Shown: one piece after another, positions 3,440-17,300 of the stretch | Layout of the letters: each line of letters begins with the position of its first letter | Position numbering within the stretch: the stretch's first letter is position 1 | IMG/VR virus record: IMGVR_UViG_2541047802_000012 | Location: 1-17,300 of that record | DNA: 17,300 nt | Strand: one strand, 5' to 3' | DNA from: a virus | Taxonomy: Duplodnaviria; Heunggongvirae; Uroviricota; Caudoviricetes | Position numbers and translations under genes: made by a program | Notes under the pieces: model-generated | Databases searched by the model: none | Told to the model about the DNA's origin: nothing | The model's input: only the letters and a program-made list of their open reading frames with translations

Positions 3440-6400
3440 ATGAGTGTGGCGACATTACGTGAACTGATTATTAAAATCTCGGCAAATTCCCGGTCATTCC
3501 AGTCAGAGATCTCCCGGGCTTCGCGTATGGGGCAGGATTACTACCGTACCATGCAGAACGGAGGCCGGCAGTCCGCTGCTGCATCCCGTGAAATGCGGCG
3601 TGCACTGGCAGAAGTGACGGATCAGATAAATACAGCTAAATCTTCGGCACTGAATATGGCGGGGGCATTTGCCGGAGCTTTTGCTACCGGTCATCTTATT
3701 TCTCTCGCCGATGAGTGGAATTCAGTAAATGCCCGTCTGAAGCAGGCTTCACAGTCCAGTGATGATTTTCAGGTATCACAACGTGAATTAATGGCAATCA
3801 GCCAGAGAACGGGAACGGCGTTTTCTGATAACGCCAGCCTTTTTGCCCGCTCTGCAGCTTCCATGCGGGAGTATGGCTACAGTTCTGAGGAGGTACTGAA
3901 AGTCACCGAGGCGATCTCCACGGGCCTGAAATTATCCGGTGCCAGTACAGCAGAAGCCAGTTCGGTGATCACGCAGTTCAGTCAGGCACTGGCGCAGGGA
4001 GTGCTGCGCGGTGAAGAATTTAACTCTGTGAATGAGAACGGCGATCGTGTTATTCGTGCGCTGGCTGCGGGAATGGGTGTTACCCGTAAGGATCTGAAGG
4101 CCATGGCGGATAACGGAAAACTGACCGCCGATAAGGTTGTTCCTGCACTGATTAGTCAGCTTGGGGCGTTGCGTGATGAATATGCAGCAATGCCTGATAC
4201 TGTTTCATCCTCTGCAACCAAAGTTGAAAACGCCTTTATGGCCTGGGTTGGTGGTGCGAACGAGGCAAGCGGAGTGACAAAGACACTCACCGGGGTGTTG
4301 AATGGTGTTGCAGACAATATTGATACCGTGGCTGCTGCAGCTGGCGCACTGGTTGCCGTCGGGGTAGCCCGATATTTTGGCAATATGGCGTCGTCTGCTG
4401 GATCTGCAACTGCCGGATTAATTACTGCAGCCAGAAACGAAGTGGCTCTTGCTGAAGCGCAACTTCGGGGGACTCAGATAGCAACCGCCAGGGCGCGTGC
4501 GGCGGTTTATCGTGCGCAACAGGCGGTTGTTGCTGCTCGCGGTACCGAAAGGCAGGCCGCAGCAGAAGCGAAGCTGACAGCTGCCCAGGCGTCACTTACC
4601 CGTAATATTGCGGCCAGAACAGCGGCACAGACAACGCTGAATACTGTCACGTCAGTGGGGAGTCGTCTGTTAAGTGGTGCGCTGGGGTTGGTTGGTGGTG
4701 TGCCGGGACTCGTCATGCTGGGGGCGACGGCCTGGTACACGATGTATCAGAATCAGGAGCAGGCCAGAGAATCTGCACGCCAGTATGCCGCAACAATCGA
4801 CGAAATTCGCCAGAAAACGTCGGCAATGTCGCTTCCTGAAGCGTCAGATAATGAGGAAAAGACGCGGCAGGCACTTGATGAGCAAAACAGGTTAATTGAC
4901 GAGCAGAAAAGTAAGATTAAATCCTTACAGGAAAAAATTGCTGGCTATCAGTATGTGCTGGCAAACCCGGGCTGGACAACCGATAACGGTTTTATGATTA
5001 ACCACATGACGTCGGTAAAAACTGTCACAGAAGGGCTTGCAGAAGCAACAAATCAACTGGCAGTTGAACAGTCCCGTCTCACACAAATGCAGGGCAAAGC
5101 GCAATCCATTCAGGATGTGCTTGCCGGGTTGGAGGAGCGACGGGTGGCGTTGATCCGTCAACAGGCCGCTGAACAAAACAAAGCGTATCAGTCCCTGTTG
5201 ATCATGAATGGGCAGCATACCGAGTTTAATCGCCTTCTCGGGCTCGGTAATGAATTACTTCAGCAGCGACAGGGGCTGGTGAATGTACCGTTACGGCTAC
5301 CACAGGCAACCCTGGATGATAAACAGCAGACTGCACTGAATAACAGCGAGCGCGAACTGGCTCTGTCCCGCCTGAAGGGGGAGGCCCGTGAGCGTGCCCG
5401 CCTGGGTTATGCTGCGGATGATCTCGGCTTTGTGGGAGAGGCGTATCAGACAGCCAGACAGAATTATATCAATAACTCACTGGATGCCTGGCGAAATAAC
5501 CAGGCAAATAAACCCAAAGCGCATAAAAAGACCGAAGCGGAAAAAACAGAAGATATTTATAAACGGCTGATTAAACAGCAAAAAGAACAAATAGCACTGG
5601 CAGGGCAGAATACTGAACTGGCTAAGATGAAATATCAGGTCAGTCAGGGCGAATTATCAACCCTGTCAGAAGCGCAGAAAAAAACGCTTTTGCAGAATGC
5701 AGCACTCATCGACCAGAAAAAGATTCGTGAGCAGCTTGCTGCGTATGAGAGCAGTCTGGCGGACAGTAATGCCAGTGCCCGGGCATCTGACGAAGCGCAG
5801 TTGTTGGGATATGGTGAAGGCTCACGGATGCGTGAACGACTCCAGGAAATGTGGAGTATCCGGCAGGCGTTTGAGCAGAAAAATAACGAGCTGCTGAGAC
5901 AGTATCAGGCCGGAGAAATTGAAGAAGCCCTGTGGAAACAGGAGAAAGAACTGAATAAAAAATATCTGGAAGAGCGTCTCAGCGATCAGCAGGATTATTA
6001 TGCAAAGGCCGATGCTTTACGTAATAACTGGAATGCCGGACTCCAGGAGGGACTGACCAACTGGGCAGACAGTGCCACCGATTATGCTTCACAGGCGGCA
6101 GATGCTGTCGTTTCTACGATGGACGGGCTGGTATCAAATATTTCCGATGCACTGGCCGGGAATGTTGTGGACTGGAGGAACTGGGGGAGTTCAGTTCTCC
6201 GGGAAGTTTCAAAAATTCTGATGAATGCAGCCATTGTTAACGGACTGAAATCACTCTCCGGTGCCGGAGGGTGGCTTGGTACGGTCGGCGGATGGATTTC
6301 GGGGGCAGTGGCAAACGCAAAAGGTGGTGTTTACACATCGGCAAATCTGAGTGCTTACAGTAACACTATTGTGGATACACCGACGTATTTTGCTTTTGCG

Positions 6401-8998: not shown

Positions 8999-9016
8999 TG
9001 AAAAACGTTTTATGTG

Positions 9017-9040
9017 AAACCGCCTCCGGGCGGTTTTGTC
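9017..9040 (+). terminator. hairpin (AAACCGCC-TCCG-GGCGGTTT) with a short interrupted T-tract between I and J; weak or partial terminator, or an mRNA structure
   Basis: Inverted repeat 9018-9024 / 9029-9035 read directly; the downstream TTGTCGTTT is only moderately U-rich. Confidence 0.3.
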
Positions 9041-9058
9041 GTTTATGGAGCGTTAGGA

Positions 9059-12000
9059 ATGGGTAAAGGCAGCAGTAAGGGGCATACTCCGCGCGAAGCG
9101 AAGGACAACCTGAAATCCACGCAGTTGCTGAGCGTGATAGACGCCATCAGTGAAGGGCCGATTGAAGGTCCGGTGGACGGATTAAAAAGTGTGCTGCTGA
9201 ACAGTACGCCAGTGCTGGACAGTGAGGGGAATACCAATATCTCCGGTGTCACGGTGGTTTTCCGGGCAGGTGAGCAGGAGCAGACACCGCCGGAGGGATT
9301 TGAATCCTCCGGCTCCGAGACGGTGCTGGGTACGGAAGTGAAGTACGACACGCCGATTACCCGGACCATCACGTCTGCAAACATCGACCGTCTGCGCTTT
9401 ACCTTCGGTGTGCAGGCACTGGTGGAAACCACCTCAAAGGGGGACCGGAATCCGTCGGAAGTCCGCCTGCTGGTTCAGATACAGCGTAATGGTGGCTGGG
9501 TGACGGAAAAAGACATCACCATTAAAGGCAAAACCACCTCACAGTATCTGGCATCGGTGGTGGTGGGTAACCTGCCGCCGCGCCCGTTCAATATCCGGAT
9601 GCGCAGGATGACGCCGGACAGCACCACAGACCAGCTGCAGAACAAAACGCTCTGGTCGTCATACACCGAAATCATCGATGTGAAACAGTGCTACCCGAAC
9701 ACGGCACTGGTCGGCGTACAGGTGGATTCGGAGCAGTTCGGCAGCCAGCAGGTGAGCCGTAATTATCATCTGCGCGGGCGTATTCTGCAGGTGCCGTCGA
9801 ACTATAACCCGCAGACGCGGCAATACAGCGGTATCTGGGACGGAACGTTTAAGCCGGCATACAGCAACAACATGGCCTGGTGTCTGTGGGATATGCTGAC
9901 CCACCCGCGCTACGGCATGGGGAAACGTCTTGGTGCGGCGGATGTGGACAAATGGGCGCTGTATGTCATCGGCCAGTACTGCGACCAGTCGGTGCCGGAC
10001 GGCTTTGGCGGCACGGAGCCGCGCATTACCTGTAATGCGTACCTGACCACACAGCGTAAGGCGTGGGATGTGCTCAGTGATTTCTGCTCGGCGATGCGCT
10101 GTATGCCGGTATGGAACGGGCAGACGCTGACGTTCGTGCAGGACCGACCATCAGATAAGGTGTGGACCTATAACCGCAGTAATGTGGTGATGCCGGATGA
10201 TGGCGCGCCGTTCCGCTACAGCTTCAGCGCCCTGAAAGACCGCCATAATGCCGTTGAGGTGAACTGGATTGACCCGGATAACGGCTGGGAGACGGCAACA
10301 GAGCTTGTGGAGGACACGCAGGCCATTGCCCGTTACGGTCGTAACGTCACGAAGATGGATGCTTTTGGCTGTACCAGCCGGGGGCAGGCACACCGCGCCG
10401 GGCTGTGGCTGATTAAAACAGAACTGCTGGAAACGCAGACCGTGGACTTCAGCGTGGGTGCCGAAGGGCTTCGCCATGTGCCGGGTGATGTTATTGAAAT
10501 CTGCGATGATGACTATGCGGGGATCAGCATCGGCGGGCGCGTGCTGGCTGTGAACAGCCAGACCCGGACGCTGACGCTCGACCGTGAAATCACGCTGCCA
10601 TCCTCCGGTACCACGCTGATAAGCCTGGTTGACGGTCAGGGTAATCCGGTCAGCGTGGAGGTCCAGTCCGTCACCGACGGCGTGAAGGTGAAAGTGAGCC
10701 GTGTTCCTGACGGCGTTGCTGAATACAGCGTGTGGGGGCTGAAGCTGCCGACGCTGCGCCAGCGCCTGTTCCGCTGCGTGAGTATCCGTGAGAACGACGA
10801 CGGCACGTATGCCATCACCGCCGTGCAGCATGTACCGGAAAAAGAGGCCATCGTGGATAACGGGGCGCACTTTGACGGCGACCAGAGCGGCACGGTGAAT
10901 GGTGTCACGCCGCCAGCGGTGCAGCACCTGACCGCCGAAGTCACCGCAGACAGCGGGGAATATCAGGTGCTGGCGCGCTGGGACACGCCGAAGGTGGTGA
11001 AGGGCGTGAGTTTCCTGCTTCGCCTGACCGTGGCAGCGGATGACGGCAGTGAGCTGCTGGTCAGCACGGCCCGGACGGCGGAAACCACATACCGCTTCAG
11101 GCAACTGGCGCTGGGGAACTACAGGCTGACAGTCCGGGCGGTAAATGCGTGGGGGCAGCAGGGCGATCCGGCGTCGGTATCGTTCCGGATTGCCGCACCG
11201 GCAGCACCGTCGAGGATTAAGCTGACGCCGGGCTATTTTCAGATAACCGCCACGCCGCATCTTGCGGTTTATGATCCGACGGTACAGTTTGAGTTCTGGT
11301 TCTCGGAAAAGCGGATTGCGGATATCAGGCAGGTTGAAACCACAGCCCGCTATCTTGGCACGGCGCTGTACTGGATAGCTGCCAGTATCAATATCAAGCC
11401 GGGCCATGATTATTATTTTTACGTTCGCAGTGTGAACACAGTCGGCAAATCGGCATTCATGGAGGCTGTCGGTCGGGCGAGCGATGATGCGGAAGGTTAC
11501 CTGGATTTTTTCAAAGGAGAAATCGGGAAAACACATCTGGCCCAGGAGCTGTGGACGCAGATTGATAACGGTCAGCTTGCGCCGGACCTGGCTGAAATCA
11601 GGACGTCCATTACGAATGTCAGCAATGAAATCACGCAGACCGTCAATAAAAAACTGGAAAATCAGAGTGCGGCAATCCAGCAGATACAGAAAGTTCAGGT
11701 TGATACAAATAATAACCTGAACAGCATGTGGGCTGTGAAGCTGCAGCAGATGCAGGACGGACGCCTTTATATCGCGGGTATTGGTGCCGGTATTGAGAAC
11801 ACCCCCGACGGTATGCAGAGTCAGGTGCTGCTGGCGGCAGACAGGATTGCGATGATTAATCCTGCGAATGGCAACACAAAGCCGATGTTTGTTGGGCAGG
11901 GCGATCAGATATTCATGAACGAAGTGTTCCTGAAATATCTGACGGCTCCCACCATTACCAGCGGCGGTAATCCTCCGGCATTTTCCCTGACACCGGACGG

Positions 12001-12538
12001 GCGGCTGACGGCGAAAAATGCCGATATCAGCGGTAACGTGAATGCGAACTCCGGGACGCTCAACAACGTCACGATTAACGAGAACTGCCGGGTTCTGGGA
12101 AAACTGTCCGCGAACCAGATTGAAGGCGATCTCGTTAAAACAGTGGGCAAAGCTTTCCCCCGGGACTCCCGTGCACCGGAACGGTGGCCATCAGGGACCA
12201 TTACCGTCAGGATTTATGACGATCAGCCGTTTGACCGGCAGATTGTTATTCCGGCGGTGGCATTCAGCGGCGCTAAACATGAGAAAGAGCATACTGATAT
12301 TTACTCCTCATGCCGTCTGATAGTGCGGAAAAACGGTGCTGAAATTTATAACCGTACCGCGCTGGATAATACGCTGATTTACAGTGGCGTTATTGATATG
12401 CCTGCCGGTCACGGTCACATGACACTGGAGTTTTCGGTGTCAGCATGGCTGGTAAATAACTGGTATCCCACAGCAAGTATCAGCGATTTGCTGGTTGTGG
12501 TGATGAAGAAAGCCACTGCAGGCATCACGATTAGCTGA
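9059..12538 (+). CDS. J: tail tip central fibre / host specificity protein J, with divergent C-terminal receptor-binding region
   Basis: From [54 protein letters not shown] onward it follows lambda gpJ closely for roughly 800 residues, including the FN3-like region ([27 protein letters not shown]). The last ~330 aa diverge. The ORF track's 9014 start is a GTG extension running through the hairpin. Confidence 0.9.
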
Positions 12539-12556: not shown

Positions 12557-12584
12557 GGGCGCCAGAAATGGCGCCTTTTTTATT
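12557..12584 (+). terminator. intrinsic terminator after J (palindromic stem GGCGCC-AGAAAT-GGCGCC then TTTTTTATT)
   Basis: Perfect 6-bp GC stem at 12558-12563 / 12570-12575 followed by a T-run at 12576-12584. Confidence 0.6.
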
Positions 12585-12605: not shown

Positions 12606-13205
12606 ATGCGTACATTATGTGCTGTTATTTTGTCCGCAGTAGTCTGGCAGGTCGCCGCTGCTACGCCAGCGAGTGCAGCAGAACATCAGTCCACGCTGAG
12701 CGCGGGGTATCTCCATGCCTCGACGAACGTTCCCGGTAGTGATGATCTGAACGGGATTAACGTGAAATACCGTTATGAGTTTACGGACATGCTGGGTGTT
12801 GTGACGTCATTCAGTTATGCCAATGCCAAAGATGAGCAAAAAACGCATTACAGCGATACCCGCTGGCATGAAGATTCAGTGCGTAACCGCTGGTTCAGCG
12901 TGATGGCGGGGCCGTCTGTGCGCGTGAATGAATGGTTCAGCGCGTATGCGATGGCGGGTATGGCTTACAGCCGTGTTTCGACTTTCTCCGGAGATTATAT
13001 CCGCGTAACTGACAACAAGGGGAAAACGCACGATGTGCTGACCGGAAGTGATGACGGTCGCCACAGCAACACGTCTCTGGCGTGGGGGGCTGGCGTGCAG
13101 TTTAACCCGACCGAATCCGTGGCCATTGACCTTGCTTATGAAGGTTCCGGCAGTGGCGACTGGCGCACTGACGGTTTCATCGTGGGTGTCGGTTATAAAT
13201 TCTGA
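12606..13205 (+). CDS. lom: Lom-like outer membrane beta-barrel protein (Ail/Lom/PagC family), with signal peptide
   Basis: N-terminal signal peptide MRTLCAVILSAVVWQVAAATPASA. The C-terminal IDLAYEGSGSGDWRTDGFIVGVGYKF is identical to the lambda Lom C-terminus as I recall it, and GINVKYRYE matches the Ail/Lom family. GAGAGG Shine-Dalgarno upstream of ATG 12606. Confidence 0.85.
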   Translation: MRTLCAVILSAVVWQVAAATPASAAEHQSTLSAGYLHASTNVPGSDDLNGINVKYRYEFTDMLGVVTSFSYANAKDEQKTHYSDTRWHEDSVRNRWFSVMAGPSVRVNEWFSAYAMAGMAYSRVSTFSGDYIRVTDNKGKTHDVLTGSDDGRHSNTSLAWGAGVQFNPTESVAIDLAYEGSGSGDWRTDGFIVGVGYKF

Positions 13206-13231: not shown

Positions 13232-13258
13232 AGCCCGCCGGTTCAGGCGGGCTTTTTT
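13232..13258 (+). terminator. intrinsic terminator after lom (AGCCCGCC-GGTTCA-GGCGGGCT then T6)
   Basis: 8-bp stem at 13232-13239 / 13246-13253 followed by TTTTTT; read directly. Confidence 0.65.
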
Positions 13259-13269
13259 GTGGAGTGGAT

Positions 13270-15648
13270 ATGGCAGCAGTAAAAATCTCAGGTGTGCTGA
13301 AAGATGGTGCGGGAAAACCAATACAGAACTGCACTATTCAACTGAAGGCAAAGCGTAACAGCACCACGGTACTGGTGAACACGGTGGCCTCTGAAAATCC
13401 GGATGAAGCCGGACGTTACAGCATGGATGTTGAGTATGGCCAGTACAGCGTCACCCTGCTGGTTGAAGGTTTTCCGCCTTCACATGCCGGGACCATTACC
13501 GTCTATGAAGGTTCCAGACCAGGTACGCTGAATGATTTTCTCGGTGCCATGACGGAAGATGATGTCATGCCGGAGGCATTGCGTCGTTTTGAGGCAATGG
13601 TGGAAGAAGTGGCACGCAACGCCGAAGCCGCCTCTCAGAGCGCAGCGGCGGCAAAGAAATCCGAAACTGCAGCGGCATCATCAAAGAACGCGGCGAAAAC
13701 CTCAGAAACGAATGCAGCTAATAGTGCACAGGCGGCAGCGACCTCAAAGACTGCATCGGCAAACTACGCGACAGCAGCCAAAAAATCAGAAACCAACGCG
13801 AAAAATAGCGAGACAGCCGCAAAGACGAGCGAAACCAACGCAAAGTCCAGCCAGACGGCAGCGAAGACCAGCGAAACGAATGCTAAAGCCAGTGAAACTG
13901 CAGCAAAAAACAGCCAGGTTTCAGCAGCCCAAAGCGAGAGTGCCGCTGCCGGTTCTGCGACTTCAGCTGCCGGATCAGCAACTGCTGCGGCTAACAGCCA
14001 GAAAGCTGCGAAGACGAGTGAAACTAACGCAAAGTCCAGCCAGACGGCAGCGAAGACCAGCGAAACGAATGCCAAAGCCAGTGAAACTGCGGCGAAAAGC
14101 AGTCAGGATGCAGCGGCCCAAAGCGAGAGTGCCGCAGCCAGTTCTGCAAGCGCGGCGGCTGCTTCTGCTACTGCATCAGCTAACAGTCAAAAAGCAGCAA
14201 AAACCAGTGAAACTAACGCAAAGGCGAGCGAAACAAAAGCAGCAGCCAGCGAGACAGAAGCAACGTCAGCCGCAACAAGAGCAGAGAATGCAGCCCGGAT
14301 TGCAGAAGATGCCGCTGATCCTGCTTCTGTCCCTCCGCTTCCTGATATCTGGCTACCCTTGAATGATTCTCTGGAAGCGATAACAGGGTATGCGCCGGGG
14401 TATAAAACAATAACCATCGGCAGCGATGAAATCACTGTGCCAGTTAATGGCATATGCCAATTTAGCCGGGCTTCATCTGCAACGTATATTGATAAGTCCG
14501 GGCATATTACCGTGGCAGGTAATAACGTTCCTCGTTTTGAAAAATATGGTTTGCTGATAGAGAATCAGCGAACAAACATGTTCGTAAATAGTTTTAATCC
14601 TGATGCGTGGAATAAAAGCGGTGGTATATCTGTAACATCATCAACAGATGAATTTGAGTTTAAATATGGACGTTTCACGGTAGGAAGCGATATAGCAGGA
14701 ACGACAACAGGGAGAAATATATGCACAGTTGCTGGTAACAAAGGCATAGATGTGACTGGCGATGATCAGTACAGTAAAGGTCCGTATGTTACCGCGTCGT
14801 TCAGGGTAAGAAGTGATCTCAATGTTCGCGCACGTATCCGTTTTGAACGGTATAACTCGGAAGGATACACCTTCCTTTGCGACGCCTATTTGTCATTACA
14901 GACCCATGAACTACAAATTACTGGTGGCAATGCCCAGCTATTAACAGCAAACTTTGAAATCGACCCTGGTAGTGGATGGATATATTTTCAGGCAACACTG
15001 AAATGTCTGCCAGAATGGGGAATGGTTGGTACGCAGCTGCAAATTGCAGCCGACAGAGCTGTGGGAGCTTTTGCAACAGGTGACTGGATAGAAGTAACCA
15101 CCCCGCAATTCGAGTATGGTGCTTGTGCAACTTCCTTCATCATAACGACAACAGAGCCAGCGACTCGTGCATCAGATTTATGTAAATTTCCGCTGATGAA
15201 AAATATGTATACCATGCCTTTTACGTTCATGGTGGAAGTCCATAAAAACTGGTTTATTTCTCATAATGCTGCACCGCGTGTCATTGATTCAGAAAATCAC
15301 CAGTCCGGAGGCCCATTTATTATGGGGTTTGGTTCTTCTGGAACTATCAGTCAGGACGGTTATTCGTATTGCGATATAGGCGGGGCTAACCGACGTGTAT
15401 ATGAATCATGCGGAGTAAGGGATCTCGTTATGGGATTCAGGGTTAAGGCTGACGGCATGACATGCTCATTTGCAAATAAGCATATAAGCGCTGAAACAAA
15501 AACAGTATGGAAATATATTCGTGAAGCAGCCGTGATTCGTATCGGGGGGCAAACGACGACAGGATTACGACACCTTAATGGTCATATAAAAAACCTCCGT
15601 TTCTGGAACAGAGCATTGTCAGATACGCAGCTTAAGGAATACGTATAA
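13270..15648 (+). CDS. stf: side tail fibre protein, Stf-like: lambda-like N-terminal attachment domain, Ala/Ser/Thr-rich repeat shaft, lectin-like (ConA/LamG-type) C-terminal tip
   Basis: MAAVKISGVLKDGAGKPIQNCTIQLKAKRNSTTV...YSMDVEYGQYSV...GFPPSHAGTITVYE matches the lambda Stf N-terminus as I recall it, with GGAG 6 nt upstream of ATG 13270. The C-terminus ends ...GHIKNLRFWNRALSDTQLKEYV, which fits the characteristic terminal motif of LamG-like jelly-roll domains (G.IDEVRIYNRALS..EI). Confidence 0.85.
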   Translation: MAAVKISGVLKDGAGKPIQNCTIQLKAKRNSTTVLVNTVASENPDEAGRYSMDVEYGQYSVTLLVEGFPPSHAGTITVYEGSRPGTLNDFLGAMTEDDVMPEALRRFEAMVEEVARNAEAASQSAAAAKKSETAAASSKNAAKTSETNAANSAQAAATSKTASANYATAAKKSETNAKNSETAAKTSETNAKSSQTAAKTSETNAKASETAAKNSQVSAAQSESAAAGSATSAAGSATAAANSQKAAKTSETNAKSSQTAAKTSETNAKASETAAKSSQDAAAQSESAAASSASAAAASATASANSQKAAKTSETNAKASETKAAASETEATSAATRAENAARIAEDAADPASVPPLPDIWLPLNDSLEAITGYAPGYKTITIGSDEITVPVNGICQFSRASSATYIDKSGHITVAGNNVPRFEKYGLLIENQRTNMFVNSFNPDAWNKSGGISVTSSTDEFEFKYGRFTVGSDIAGTTTGRNICTVAGNKGIDVTGDDQYSKGPYVTASFRVRSDLNVRARIRFERYNSEGYTFLCDAYLSLQTHELQITGGNAQLLTANFEIDPGSGWIYFQATLKCLPEWGMVGTQLQIAADRAVGAFATGDWIEVTTPQFEYGACATSFIITTTEPATRASDLCKFPLMKNMYTMPFTFMVEVHKNWFISHNAAPRVIDSENHQSGGPFIMGFGSSGTISQDGYSYCDIGGANRRVYESCGVRDLVMGFRVKADGMTCSFANKHISAETKTVWKYIREAAVIRIGGQTTTGLRHLNGHIKNLRFWNRALSDTQLKEYV
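13650..14260 (+). repeat. in-frame tandem direct repeats inside stf (about 189-bp unit, two near-identical copies plus partial copies; encodes reiterated K-T/S-SETNAK-A/S-S-E/Q-T-AAK motifs)
   Basis: The string gcaaagtccagccagacggcagcgaagaccagcgaaacgaatgc recurs near 13840 and near 14029 (offset 189 bp) with flanking similarity; the protein shows the corresponding repeated motif. Confidence 0.7.
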
Positions 15649-15917
15649 TGCGAGATATAACATTACGATTCGATAACAGAGAACAGTTTAACGCAATTGT
15701 ATATGACAGTGGCCTGTTCAGTCTTGAAGAAGAAAACGGGGTTCTTGTTGATGTTATTGGCTGCATTATCGATTACGAGGAGCCAGAAAACGAAAGATGT
15801 ACAGGCATTGATCGCGGTGGTTTTTTCGTAAACATGAGGATTGTTGATAGCAGTAAAAACATATCTTCTTTAATGCCTTTCATTACGACAGATCAGCATG
15901 TAAGGACATGGGCTTAA
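15648..15917 (+). CDS. hypothetical 89-aa acidic protein, first gene of a low-GC cassette
   Basis: ATG 15648 overlaps the stf stop (TAATG), with AAGGAA upstream. Visibly AT-rich relative to the tail genes. No family recognised. Confidence 0.5.
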   Translation: MRDITLRFDNREQFNAIVYDSGLFSLEEENGVLVDVIGCIIDYEEPENERCTGIDRGGFFVNMRIVDSSKNISSLMPFITTDQHVRTWA

Positions 15918-15929
15918 TGGAGTAAGACA

Positions 15930-16970
15930 ATGGTTACAAAAACAGTAATTCCTGATGACATCAAAACGCTAAAATCCGATGTTAGTAAACTAAAAACTGA
16001 TCAAGGAAGCTATGCAACAAAATCATATGTAGACAATAAAACAACATGGAATAGTTATTGCAATGTAATCTATGATCAAAAGGCATTGCCGACCACTGGA
16101 ACTATATTTAGCGGTAAGATTCACTTGTCAAATAAGACAGGAGAAACCGAAAACGCTTATAGTGAGATGTACACCAGAAAAAATATTGACGGTACAAAAG
16201 ATACAATGACAAGGATTGTCACACACAATGGAACAAAAGGTATCTTTTGGGATTTTAGCGATCTTTACGGCGGAACATTAATTTTTCCAGGCAGTGATGG
16301 TTACCTTAAGATGGGGAACTGTCTCATGTCGTATGGTGTGCGGGGAAGTAACGCGCTTATTAAGTTTGACTGCACAGACACATTACAAATCAAATATGCC
16401 AATCATGGGTCAACCATGACATTAAACACACAGGGAACCGCTTATGCTGGTGTTACTGCTCAATTGTGGGGCAACTCCAGCCGTCCTGTTGTTTATGAAG
16501 TCGGTGTTGATGGTGGCGCTTATATGTTCTATGCGCAGAAAAATACCGATAACACCTATATGTTAAGCGTTAATGGTGCATGTCATGCCACCGCATTTAA
16601 CCAGCATTCCGACCGGGATCTGAAAGACAACATTCAGGTGATCGATAATGCAACCGACCGCATCCGTAAAATGAACGGCTATACATACACGCTTAAAGAA
16701 AACGGTATGCCCTATGCTGGTGTCATTGCACAGGAAGCTCTGGAAGCAATCCCAGAAGTTGTAGGTTCCGCAATGAAATATCAGGACGGTGCAAGCGGAT
16801 CGGAAGGTGAAGAAGGTGAACGTTATTACACAGTAGATTATTCTGGTGTTACTGGCTTGCTTGTTCAGGTAGCCAGAGAGTCAGACGACAGAATAACAGC
16901 ACTGGAAGAAGAAAACGCAGAATTAAGACAAAGATTATCTGCAATTGAGGCGGCGCTTGCGTCTAAATAA
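15930..16970 (+). CDS. tail-fibre-like protein with C-terminal intramolecular chaperone / autoproteolysis domain (peptidase S74-type)
   Basis: GGAG 7 nt upstream of ATG 15930. The C-terminal ~120 aa (HSDRDLKDNIQVID...YTYTLKENG...AGVIAQEALEAIPEVV...YTVDYSGVTGLLVQ...ALEEENAELRQRL) matches the conserved S74 chaperone-of-endosialidase pattern, including the Ser-x4-Lys dyad spacing (Ser codon 16608-16610, Lys codon 16623-16625). Confidence 0.7.
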   Translation: MVTKTVIPDDIKTLKSDVSKLKTDQGSYATKSYVDNKTTWNSYCNVIYDQKALPTTGTIFSGKIHLSNKTGETENAYSEMYTRKNIDGTKDTMTRIVTHNGTKGIFWDFSDLYGGTLIFPGSDGYLKMGNCLMSYGVRGSNALIKFDCTDTLQIKYANHGSTMTLNTQGTAYAGVTAQLWGNSSRPVVYEVGVDGGAYMFYAQKNTDNTYMLSVNGACHATAFNQHSDRDLKDNIQVIDNATDRIRKMNGYTYTLKENGMPYAGVIAQEALEAIPEVVGSAMKYQDGASGSEGEEGERYYTVDYSGVTGLLVQVARESDDRITALEEENAELRQRLSAIEAALASK

Positions 16971-16976
16971 TATCAA

Positions 16977-16996
16977 GGGGCCGAGCGCCCCGTTTT
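16977..16996 (+). terminator. terminator-like hairpin (GGGGC-CGAGC-GCCCC then G-TTTT-ATT) after the S74-domain gene
   Basis: 5-bp all-GC stem at 16977-16981 / 16987-16991 followed by a T-tract; read directly. Confidence 0.45.
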
Positions 16997-17012
16997 ATTG
17001 GGTAGGATGAAA

Positions 17013-17300
17013 ATGGATATAACACCTTTCCTTCATGCGCTTTGTGCTGTGGCTGCGCAGGTACTGGTTGGTTTTTTTACCGGGAACTGGGCTTACGGGG
17101 CGATAGCCGGTTGTACATTCTTCATTGCGCGGGAACACACCCAGGCAGAATATCGCTGGATTGAAATGTTCGGGCATGGCAAGCGGATTAACATGCCATG
17201 GTGGGGCGGTTTTGATCCGCGCGCGTGGGATGTGGCAAGCCTGATGGATTTTGCTGTGCCGGTGGTGGCGTGTCTGCTGATCTGGATGTTGATCCGTTAA
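17013..17300 (+). CDS. hypothetical small integral membrane protein (about 96 aa, three predicted hydrophobic helices)
   Basis: AGGA 6 nt upstream of ATG 17013 (the ORF track's TTG 16998 and ATG 17007 are alternatives). Three hydrophobic stretches (FLHALCAVAAQVLVGFF, WAYGAIAGCTFFIA, FAVPVVACLLIWMLI). Stop TAA at 17298-17300, the last bases of the window. Confidence 0.5.
   Translation: MDITPFLHALCAVAAQVLVGFFTGNWAYGAIAGCTFFIAREHTQAEYRWIEMFGHGKRINMPWWGGFDPRAWDVASLMDFAVPVVACLLIWMLIR

Follow-up and report, generated by a model that had tools for sequence, protein, structure and literature searches.

The gene for a 346-aa fibre protein, located near the 3' end of the window, raises the question of how such a short protein is attached to a lambda-type tail. 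The window is the whole stretch of 17,300 nucleotides that was analysed, and it covers the tail half of a lambda-like genome, either prophage or phage. Its upstream genes encode a head-tail connector, tail completion proteins, an Ig-domain tail tube protein and a tail assembly chaperone, and further genes encode the tape measure protein and the tail proteins of the M, L and I families, as well as J and Lom. The lom gene is followed by four genes, which encode an Stf-like protein, an 89-aa protein, the 346-aa protein and a 97-aa membrane protein. The 346-aa protein is likely to form the distal part of a composite side (lateral) tail fibre, as an exchangeable subunit for receptor binding, and it is termed the tip protein hereafter. 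The positions of the genes and of the regions of the tip protein are summarized in Table 1.

Table 1. Features of the side tail fibre region of the window (positions are those of the window)
Feature	Position	Strand	Remarks
J	9014-12538		All lambda-type domains present (Pfam)
Lom	12606-13205		Pfam
Stf-like protein (probable proximal side tail fibre)	13264..15648	+	794 aa
89-aa protein	15648..15917	+	phrog_1361; candidate fibre assembly factor or connector
Tip protein (probable side-tail-fibre distal tip)	15930..16970	+	346 aa; coordinates include the stop codon
N-terminal adaptor of the tip protein (putative)	15930..16013	+	aa 1-28; motif MVTKTVIPDDIKTLKSD, followed by a short predicted helix (aa 9-28)
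Mature fibre / receptor-binding region (putative)	16014..16607	+	aa 29-226
Hypervariable block	16050-16229	+	aa 41-100
Intramolecular chaperone domain	16608..16967	+	aa 227-346; 13.2 kDa
Pfam S74 core	16608-16763	+	aa 227-278
C-terminal helix	16839-16964	+	aa 304-345; predicted
Terminator-like hairpin GGGGCCGAGCGCCCC, then GTTTTATT	16977..16999 (hairpin 16977-16991)	+	Consensus scan

The start codon of the 89-aa ORF overlaps the stop codon of the Stf-like gene (ATGA). The tip gene is preceded by a ribosome-binding site (GGAG) 8 nt 5' of its ATG codon, and is directly followed by a candidate terminator, which is a consensus match only and for which an RNA fold of -16.9 kcal/mol (z = -2.1) is calculated. 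The ORF for the 97-aa membrane protein is located 3' of this hairpin and extends to the end of the window. The G+C content is 0.58-0.63 in J, decreases to 0.44 at approximately position 14300, and is 0.37 from the 89-aa gene to the middle of the tip gene. This decrease fits the import of the module from AT-richer virulent phages, which may therefore be its origin.

S74-type chaperone domain of the tip protein

The preliminary description of the window had assigned an S74-type intramolecular chaperone domain to the C-terminus of the tip protein, based on the motif HSDRDLK with Ser and Lys five residues apart, and had placed the catalytic Ser at codon 16608-16610. This motif is located at residues 226-232. 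The translation places the predicted catalytic Ser227 (tcc) at this very codon and Lys232 (aaa) at codon 16623-16625. The bare Ser-x4-Lys spacing is weak evidence, because loosely similar patterns occur three times in the 346-aa protein. The assignment is, judged from the profile evidence, nevertheless sound. Peptidase_S74 (PF13884) matches residues 227-278 in a Pfam search, over profile positions 1-57 of 58, with an E value of 5e-14 and a score of 52.8 bits as compared to the gathering cut-off of 22, and this match is far beyond chance.

The comparison with solved structures agrees with the Pfam result. The 346-aa protein alone matches the chaperone-bearing C-terminus of phage S16 gp37 (PDB 6f45) with an E value of 1.3e-3. 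When a profile constructed from the C-terminal 142 residues and their homologues is compared with the PDB, it matches S16 gp37 (6f45, E=1.8e-12), human MYRF in its auto-processing domain (7dc3, E=3.6e-9) and a chain of an L-shaped tail fibre protein (8hqz_d, E=2.3e-8). Ser and Lys of the two phage chains, 6f45 and 8hqz_d, coincide with those of this profile. In alignment A5, both Ser227 and Lys232 are invariant, and in alignment A4 their conservation is at least 90%. The hydrophobic core of the domain, which had been described as conserved, is indeed conserved among the homologues, and the terminal coiled coil that had been noticed corresponds to the long predicted C-terminal helix (pLDDT 81-89), with which the helices at the ends of the chaperones of known structure align. 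The domain extends to the stop codon. The AF2 monomer model of the tip protein is poor, with a pLDDT value of 63.6, and with a value of approximately 40 in the chaperone region.

The C-terminal 120 residues of the tip protein would therefore act as an S74-type intramolecular chaperone, and the way in which they act is suggested by the chaperone of T5 pb1. T5 pb1 is cleaved between Thr1263 and Ser1264, Ser1264 is activated by Lys1269, and the cleavage requires a correctly folded trimer; competition for the receptor is seen with the processed form alone, and binding is unmasked after cleavage (PMC4690869). By analogy with the Thr1263-Ser1264 bond of T5 pb1, we infer that the scissile bond of the tip protein is located between His226 and Ser227. 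Three chaperone domains would come together and serve as a template on which the preceding fibre domain folds as a trimer, and when this fold is correct, Ser227, activated by Lys232, would cut the bond between His226 and Ser227. This cleavage would release a fragment of 13.2 kDa (aa 227-346) and leave a mature subunit of 24.9 kDa (aa 1-226). The size of the released fragment, as computed from the sequence, falls within the range of 12-14 kDa that had been expected for it. The S74 domain is supported by all analyses, and the proposal that the tip protein is a trimeric fibre protein that folds without a separate chaperone likewise gains support. Upstream of the putative scissile bond, Arg185 is invariant and Glu190 is conserved, but their spacing differs from that of Arg1250 and Asp1239 of T5 pb1, which act there as sensors of folding.

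The S74 domain of this family is already flagged in public annotation. The family contains thousands of member sequences, and many of the 193 homologues of the tip protein are annotated as 'tail fiber domain-containing protein' with PF13884. PHROG 4563 'tail fiber protein' covers the full length of the tip protein with an E value of 6e-211, and a search against NCBIfam gives no match to it. A more informative annotation would be 'side tail fibre distal subunit with S74 intramolecular chaperone'.

Adaptor and mosaic structure of the tip protein

The first approximately 17 residues are alike in all tips compared, even when the remainder of the protein is unrelated, and follow the consensus M[VAT]TxTxIPxDI[TK]x[LK] (MVTKTVIPxDIxxLK). 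When residues 1-37 of the tip protein are used as a tblastn query, 32 phage records are detected, which derive from lambdoid phages, Nonagvirus and Drexlerviridae. The adaptor is also identical at 12 of 17 positions to the N-terminus of gp24 of the T5-like phage IrisVonRoten, which starts MVTKTVIPTDITKLKNE. Alternative tip alleles of 227, 234 and 363 aa carry the same adaptor.

The tip protein of phage PhiR55_1, which is composed of 227 aa, has only the adaptor and the S74 domain in common with that of the window. At the DNA level, the window and PhiR55_1 are 98.4% identical in a stretch that includes the 3' end of the Stf-like gene and the whole 89-aa gene and reaches codon 15 of the tip gene, and this identity ends at position 15973 of the window. 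The break in identity appears to be the footprint of a module exchange at the adaptor. Block-wise comparison of the tip alleles indicates that residues 1-20 and the chaperone domain are conserved, and that residues 41-100 are only 30-35% identical in alleles that are otherwise 95-100% identical. The region of residues 160-226, located just before the putative cleavage site, is a more conserved, beta-rich domain. Mosaicism of this kind is typical, indeed classic, for receptor-binding proteins, and the arrangement of a constant adaptor, a variable region and a constant chaperone suggests that selection on receptor binding is ongoing.

An enzymatic domain is not detected by Pfam in the 226-aa mature part, and S74 is the sole family detected along the whole sequence. 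The mature part gives weak structural matches, the best being the fibre domains of T4 gp34. The variable middle of the tip protein, especially residues 41-100, would set an additional receptor specificity, and its receptor is, by analogy, most likely a surface glycan such as O-antigen. The location of the variability argues to some extent against a distal tip, because the domain just before the cleavage site is rather conserved and the variability is located further N-terminally, unlike in T5, in which the receptor is bound at the extreme tip.

Fibre cassette and probable attachment of the tip protein

The Stf-like protein would be held on the tail by its N-terminal domain of the lambda Stf type. 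Pfam phage_tail_N matches residues 5-134 of this protein (nt 13276-13665) with an E value of 5.4e-67, and a match to the lambda tail fibre chain 9e7m covers residues 5-97, with an E value of 7e-49. The anchor is followed by an Ala/Ser/Thr-rich shaft (approximately residues 105-350) and by a globular C-terminal domain (residues 353-794, nt 14320-15645). NCBIfam GTA_spike_fiber is found at residues 431-636, and Laminin_G_3 matches the far C-terminus weakly. The domain is of the GTA_spike_fiber / lectin-like type. An S74 domain is not found in the Stf-like protein. Residues 115-794, which cover the shaft and the C-terminal domain, are 45% identical to gp22 of IrisVonRoten. The Stf-like protein is thus a chimera, in which the lambda Stf anchor (residues 1-97) is joined to a lateral fibre of the T5 type. 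Its C-terminal domain is present in 214 phage records, which represent T5-like phages, Drexlerviridae, Dhillonvirus, Nonagvirus/Seuratvirus, lambdoid phages and Vequintavirinae.

The three genes form a cassette, in which the proximal fibre gene is followed by the gene for a protein of approximately 90 aa and, in the third position, by the gene for the S74 tip. This cassette is present in the lambdoid phages Tritos and PhiR55_1, in Nonagvirus JenP1 and a related metagenomic contig (L033), in the Drexlerviridae phage JK16, and in the T5-like phages SelmaRatti and IrisVonRoten and a T5-like contig of 111 kb with LtfC and the pb4 spike (L035). In Dhillonvirus 'rolling', an unannotated adaptor-bearing ORF is located after the small gene and is cut by the end of the record before its C-terminus. 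When 28 IMG/VR prophage loci are chosen as carrying the same 89-aa protein, the tip gene occupies the third position in 26 of them, with the same N-terminus in all, and encodes alleles of 346, 227, 234 or 363 aa, two of which are cut by the end of the contig. A literature search on this cassette in lambdoid prophages gave nothing specific.

The preliminary description had interpreted the tip protein as a second fibre or spike in addition to the Stf-like fibre, and had regarded its mode of attachment as not evident. If the tip protein formed an independent fibre or spike, it would be anchored directly to the lambda-type tail tip, through J or a neighbouring tail protein. The tip protein indeed has a gene and a ribosome-binding site to itself, as well as its own folding device, and some phages have several independently attached receptor-binding proteins (bioRxiv 10.1101/2024.09.12.612763). 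Such direct anchoring is, however, very unlikely, because a recognisable tail-anchor domain is not detected in the tip protein by Pfam, and because the same adaptor is present in T5-like, T1-like, 9g-like, Dhillonvirus and lambdoid phages, the tail tips of which are unlike one another. In addition, the adaptor co-occurs with the C-terminal domain of the proximal fibre and the protein of approximately 90 aa, and in the loci inspected the tip gene is never found apart from this pair. Because the tails differ and the C-terminal part of the proximal fibre is common, the tip protein probably rides on the Stf-like fibre. The mature trimer would not bind to the lambda-type tail directly, and its adaptor (residues 1 to approximately 28) would dock on the C-terminal region of the Stf-like fibre. 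We infer this docking partner from synteny and conservation, with which a published model of the gp22-gp24 pair of IrisVonRoten agrees. A ready answer to the question of attachment is therefore available in the adaptor and the C-terminal part of the proximal fibre. The notion of a fibre in addition to the Stf-like one is not borne out, since the cassette is conserved and the adaptor is common to distal subunits of lateral fibres. The preliminary interpretation as a whole is thus partly supported.

The tip gene is cleanly deleted in the other two of the 28 prophage loci (L029 and L031), and phage 1H12 has the proximal fibre and the small protein without any tip. These three cases count against the tip protein being the distal end of the fibre, and they indicate that a fibre can exist without it. 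Receptors may be bound by the proximal fibre alone, and the tip protein is best seen as an optional extra specificity, with the fibre being bipartite or branched. The two prophage deletions would agree with the S74 domain being a non-cleaving relic, or with the tip gene being a prophage remnant in decay, with no contribution to virions, as would the viability of the lambdoid phage 1H12 without this gene and the truncated homologues that are common in databases. It is nevertheless extremely improbable that the gene is such a relic or remnant, because the ORF is intact, because Ser227, Lys232 and the hydrophobic core are conserved in a family of this size, and because members of the family are present in the propagating phages Tritos, JenP1, JK16 and IrisVonRoten and in the PhiR phages. 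The mosaic of adaptor, variable region and chaperone described above also argues against decay.

The 89-aa protein gives almost no matches in single-sequence searches, and a profile search detects at least 343 small homologues of it. Among the 120 homologues listed, all are 91-93 aa long and unnamed. Comparison with PDB sequences gives only noise, and the AF2 model (pLDDT 65) has a small alpha/beta fold without an informative structural neighbour. A match to the Tfa family is not found for the 89-aa or the 346-aa protein. Two candidate homologues, P0127 and P0128, were rejected as spurious, being long repeat proteins, and P0125 was rejected as a frameshifted fusion artefact.

The 89-aa protein is probably a dedicated partner of the C-terminal domain of the proximal fibre, and could act either as an assembly factor or as a connector. 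In the latter case, it would be a structural component of the virion, and the adaptor of the tip protein would bind to it instead of binding to the Stf-like protein directly. The small gene always separates the two fibre genes, and the ATGA overlap couples its translation to that of the Stf-like gene; the BASEL records name the small homologues of IrisVonRoten and SelmaRatti 'tail fiber protein', all of which is consistent with a connector. A connector is still rather doubtful, because the small proteins are only approximately 30% identical between cassettes in which the tip adaptors are almost identical, and because the small protein accompanies the proximal-fibre domain without an adaptor-bearing tip in lambdoid phage 1H12 and in Vequintavirus CarlMeissner (gp26-gp27), for which a chaperone of the proximal fibre fits better. 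One BASEL record in fact names a small homologue 'putative lateral tail fiber chaperone', and the predicted fold of the 89-aa protein is uninformative. The divergence of the small protein and its occurrence without the tip favour a role as an assembly factor tied to the proximal fibre, with the adaptor docking on the Stf-like protein itself. Such a factor would be natural, because the proximal fibre has no S74 domain and is accompanied by no Tfa gene. A literature search on 'lateral tail fiber chaperone' gave nothing specific.

It is possible, as a tentative extension of these results, that the adaptor, the C-terminal domain of the proximal fibre and the protein of approximately 90 aa (phrog_1361) constitute a universal plug and socket, through which S74-capped receptor-binding tips would be exchanged among at least five coliphage lineages. 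These lineages would be the lambdoid phages, Dhillonvirus, Nonagvirus, Drexlerviridae and the T5-like phages, and the protein of approximately 90 aa may then represent a fibre-junction or assembly factor of a new type. In that case, a mere exchange of the third gene could retarget lambda-type particles. The boundaries at residues 28, 226 and 227 of the tip protein would offer natural points at which the receptor specificity of lambdoid particles can be exchanged, and the practical value of this is modest. The conserved partner of approximately 90 aa is an uncharacterised component of note.

Comparison with known fibre systems

The closest counterpart of the cassette is found in IrisVonRoten (Bas32), in which gp22, the small protein gp23 and gp24 are encoded in the same order. 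In the AlphaFold-Multimer model, gp24, which has a chaperone domain, is attached to the proximal fibre gp22; the C-terminus of gp22 contains a galectin-like domain, and gp24 is the distal receptor-binding protein (bioRxiv 10.1101/2024.09.12.612763). The identity between the Stf-like protein and gp22 extends over the shaft and the C-terminal domain, but gp22 has an N-terminus of the T5 type, whereas the Stf-like protein has the lambda Stf anchor instead. The 89-aa protein is homologous to gp23 with 33% identity. The tip protein shares with gp24 the adaptor, a homologous C-terminal half and the S74 domain, but it is composed of 346 aa as compared to 574 aa of gp24. It aligns with gp24 at the adaptor and at residues 264-571, and lacks the region that corresponds to residues 18-263 of gp24. 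Because the 'Gp12-like RBD1' of the BASEL authors presumably lies in this region, the tip protein of the window is presumably single-domain and not T-shaped.

The branched L-shaped fibres of the T5-like phages DT57C and DT571/2 resemble the proposed fibre in that an anchorless second fibre protein is attached through the first one. In DT57C, LtfB has no tail anchor and is carried by LtfA according to genetic evidence, both proteins have a C-terminal autocleaving chaperone (pfam13884), and a short N-terminal segment of LtfB is thought to mediate attachment (PMC4728585; PMC10713586). LtfA ends in an S74 domain, whereas the proximal fibre of the window does not, and the window has an intervening gene for a protein of approximately 90 aa. 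The adaptors of the window and DT57C appear to be unrelated, because the tblastn search of phage genomes with the adaptor of the window gives no DT57C record.

T5 pb1 (PDB 4UW7/4UW8) and the tip protein have in common the S74 chaperone and the Ser/Lys dyad five residues apart. T5 pb1 is, however, a single polypeptide of 1396 aa that is itself anchored to the tail, and its bullet-shaped tip matches the model of the tip protein only marginally (4uw7, Foldseek E=2). The K1F endosialidase (endoNF), to which the preliminary description had likened the tip protein, resembles it in the C-terminal chaperone family only (PF13884 'Chaperone of endosialidase'). The likeness holds for this domain and does not extend to enzymatic activity, because K1F endosialidase is a tailspike, whereas the mature part of the tip protein is a fibre segment of 226 aa, upstream of the chaperone of which neither a sialidase nor a beta-helix depolymerase domain is detected by Pfam.

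The genes of the window occupy the same genomic slot as those for lambda Stf and Tfa, after J and lom, and the N-terminal anchor domain is common to lambda Stf and the Stf-like protein. Unlike the lambda system, the window has neither a gene for a Tfa-type chaperone nor a gp37-like C-terminus, and the distal end of its fibre is supplied by a separate S74 protein. The first BASEL paper describes that the lateral fibres of small siphoviruses may be formed by one polypeptide or by two or more. A composite architecture is already described for other coliphages, and in this respect the system of the window is ordinary. The short anchorless fibre protein on a lambda-type tail thereby becomes a case of the modular multi-protein lateral fibres of T5-like and other coliphages.

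Upstream fibre genes and base composition

The Stf-like protein is a chimera, in which residues 1-97 correspond to the lambda Stf anchor and are followed by a shaft and a C-terminal domain with 45% identity to gp22, the proximal fibre of the T5-like phage IrisVonRoten. The G+C content is ~0.60 in J and decreases across the fibre cassette, first to 0.44 and then to 0.37. This decrease suggests that the cassette was imported from AT-richer virulent phages. The antisense ORF within J is most likely spurious, a product of the high local G+C content (0.59-0.63). The location of lom between two terminator-like hairpins is the arrangement expected of an independently expressed moron.

Features of the fibre region and its flanks (positions in the window)
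Feature	Position	Strand	Remarks
461-aa ORF	10151-11536	-	antisense within J gene
Hairpin flanking lom	12557-12576		terminator-like, strong; 8 pairs and T-run
lom	12606-13205
Hairpin flanking lom	13232-13253		terminator-like, strong; 8 pairs and T-run
Stf-like protein	13264-15648	+	chimera; composition change near 14300
89-aa protein	15648-15917	+	phrog_1361
97-aa ORF	17007-17300	+	phrog_1443; three hydrophobic segments

Genes adjoining the tip gene

The family of the 89-aa protein has at least 343 members, and the 120 members listed are all 91-93 aa long and unnamed. In five phage lineages, the gene of this family is always located directly 3' of the region encoding the C-terminal domain of the proximal fibre, regardless of whether an S74 tip is present. 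One family member is labelled 'putative lateral tail fiber chaperone' in a BASEL record, and the fold prediction for the 89-aa protein is uninformative.

At the 3' side of the cassette, a terminator-like hairpin is followed by the 97-aa ORF, which ends exactly at the window end. Almost every lambdoid locus has this gene 3' of the cassette, and the locus of the tip-less phage 1H12 is among them. Its product gives no Pfam match; the gene could be a moron, or encode an exclusion or surface protein that is made from the prophage.

Loss, variation and possible exchange of the tip gene

The tip gene is removed from two IMG/VR prophages, L029 (6270-6427) and L031, by a clean ~0.93-kb deletion equivalent to window ~15922-16854, which extends from just past the stop codon of the 89-aa gene as far as the final chaperone-domain helix. 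Both the terminator and the 97-aa gene remain intact in these prophages. PhiR55_1 (L002, 5331-6014) and 11 IMG/VR loci carry a different tip allele, which encodes 227 aa. This allele shares the N-terminal adaptor of the 346-aa tip, and its S74 domain begins at Ser109. Its mature part would be only 108 residues long, an unusually small size for a fibre segment that binds a receptor. The same adaptor (MVTKTNIPADITALQ...) forms the N-terminus of an unannotated ORF in Dhillonvirus 'rolling' (NC_073056.1; L040, ~4550-5382), which continues past the end of the linear record. This result indicates that the distal fibre gene of 'rolling' is missing from the deposited annotation.

The final ~200 bp of the tip gene (window 16805-17000), which contain the chaperone helix and the terminator, share 96% identity with the terminal part of a 'tail fiber protein' gene of Escherichia phage vB_EcoP-611R6 (ON470589.1), the name of which suggests a podovirus. 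Judged from this match, the chaperone 3' end may be an additional recombination anchor between phage types.
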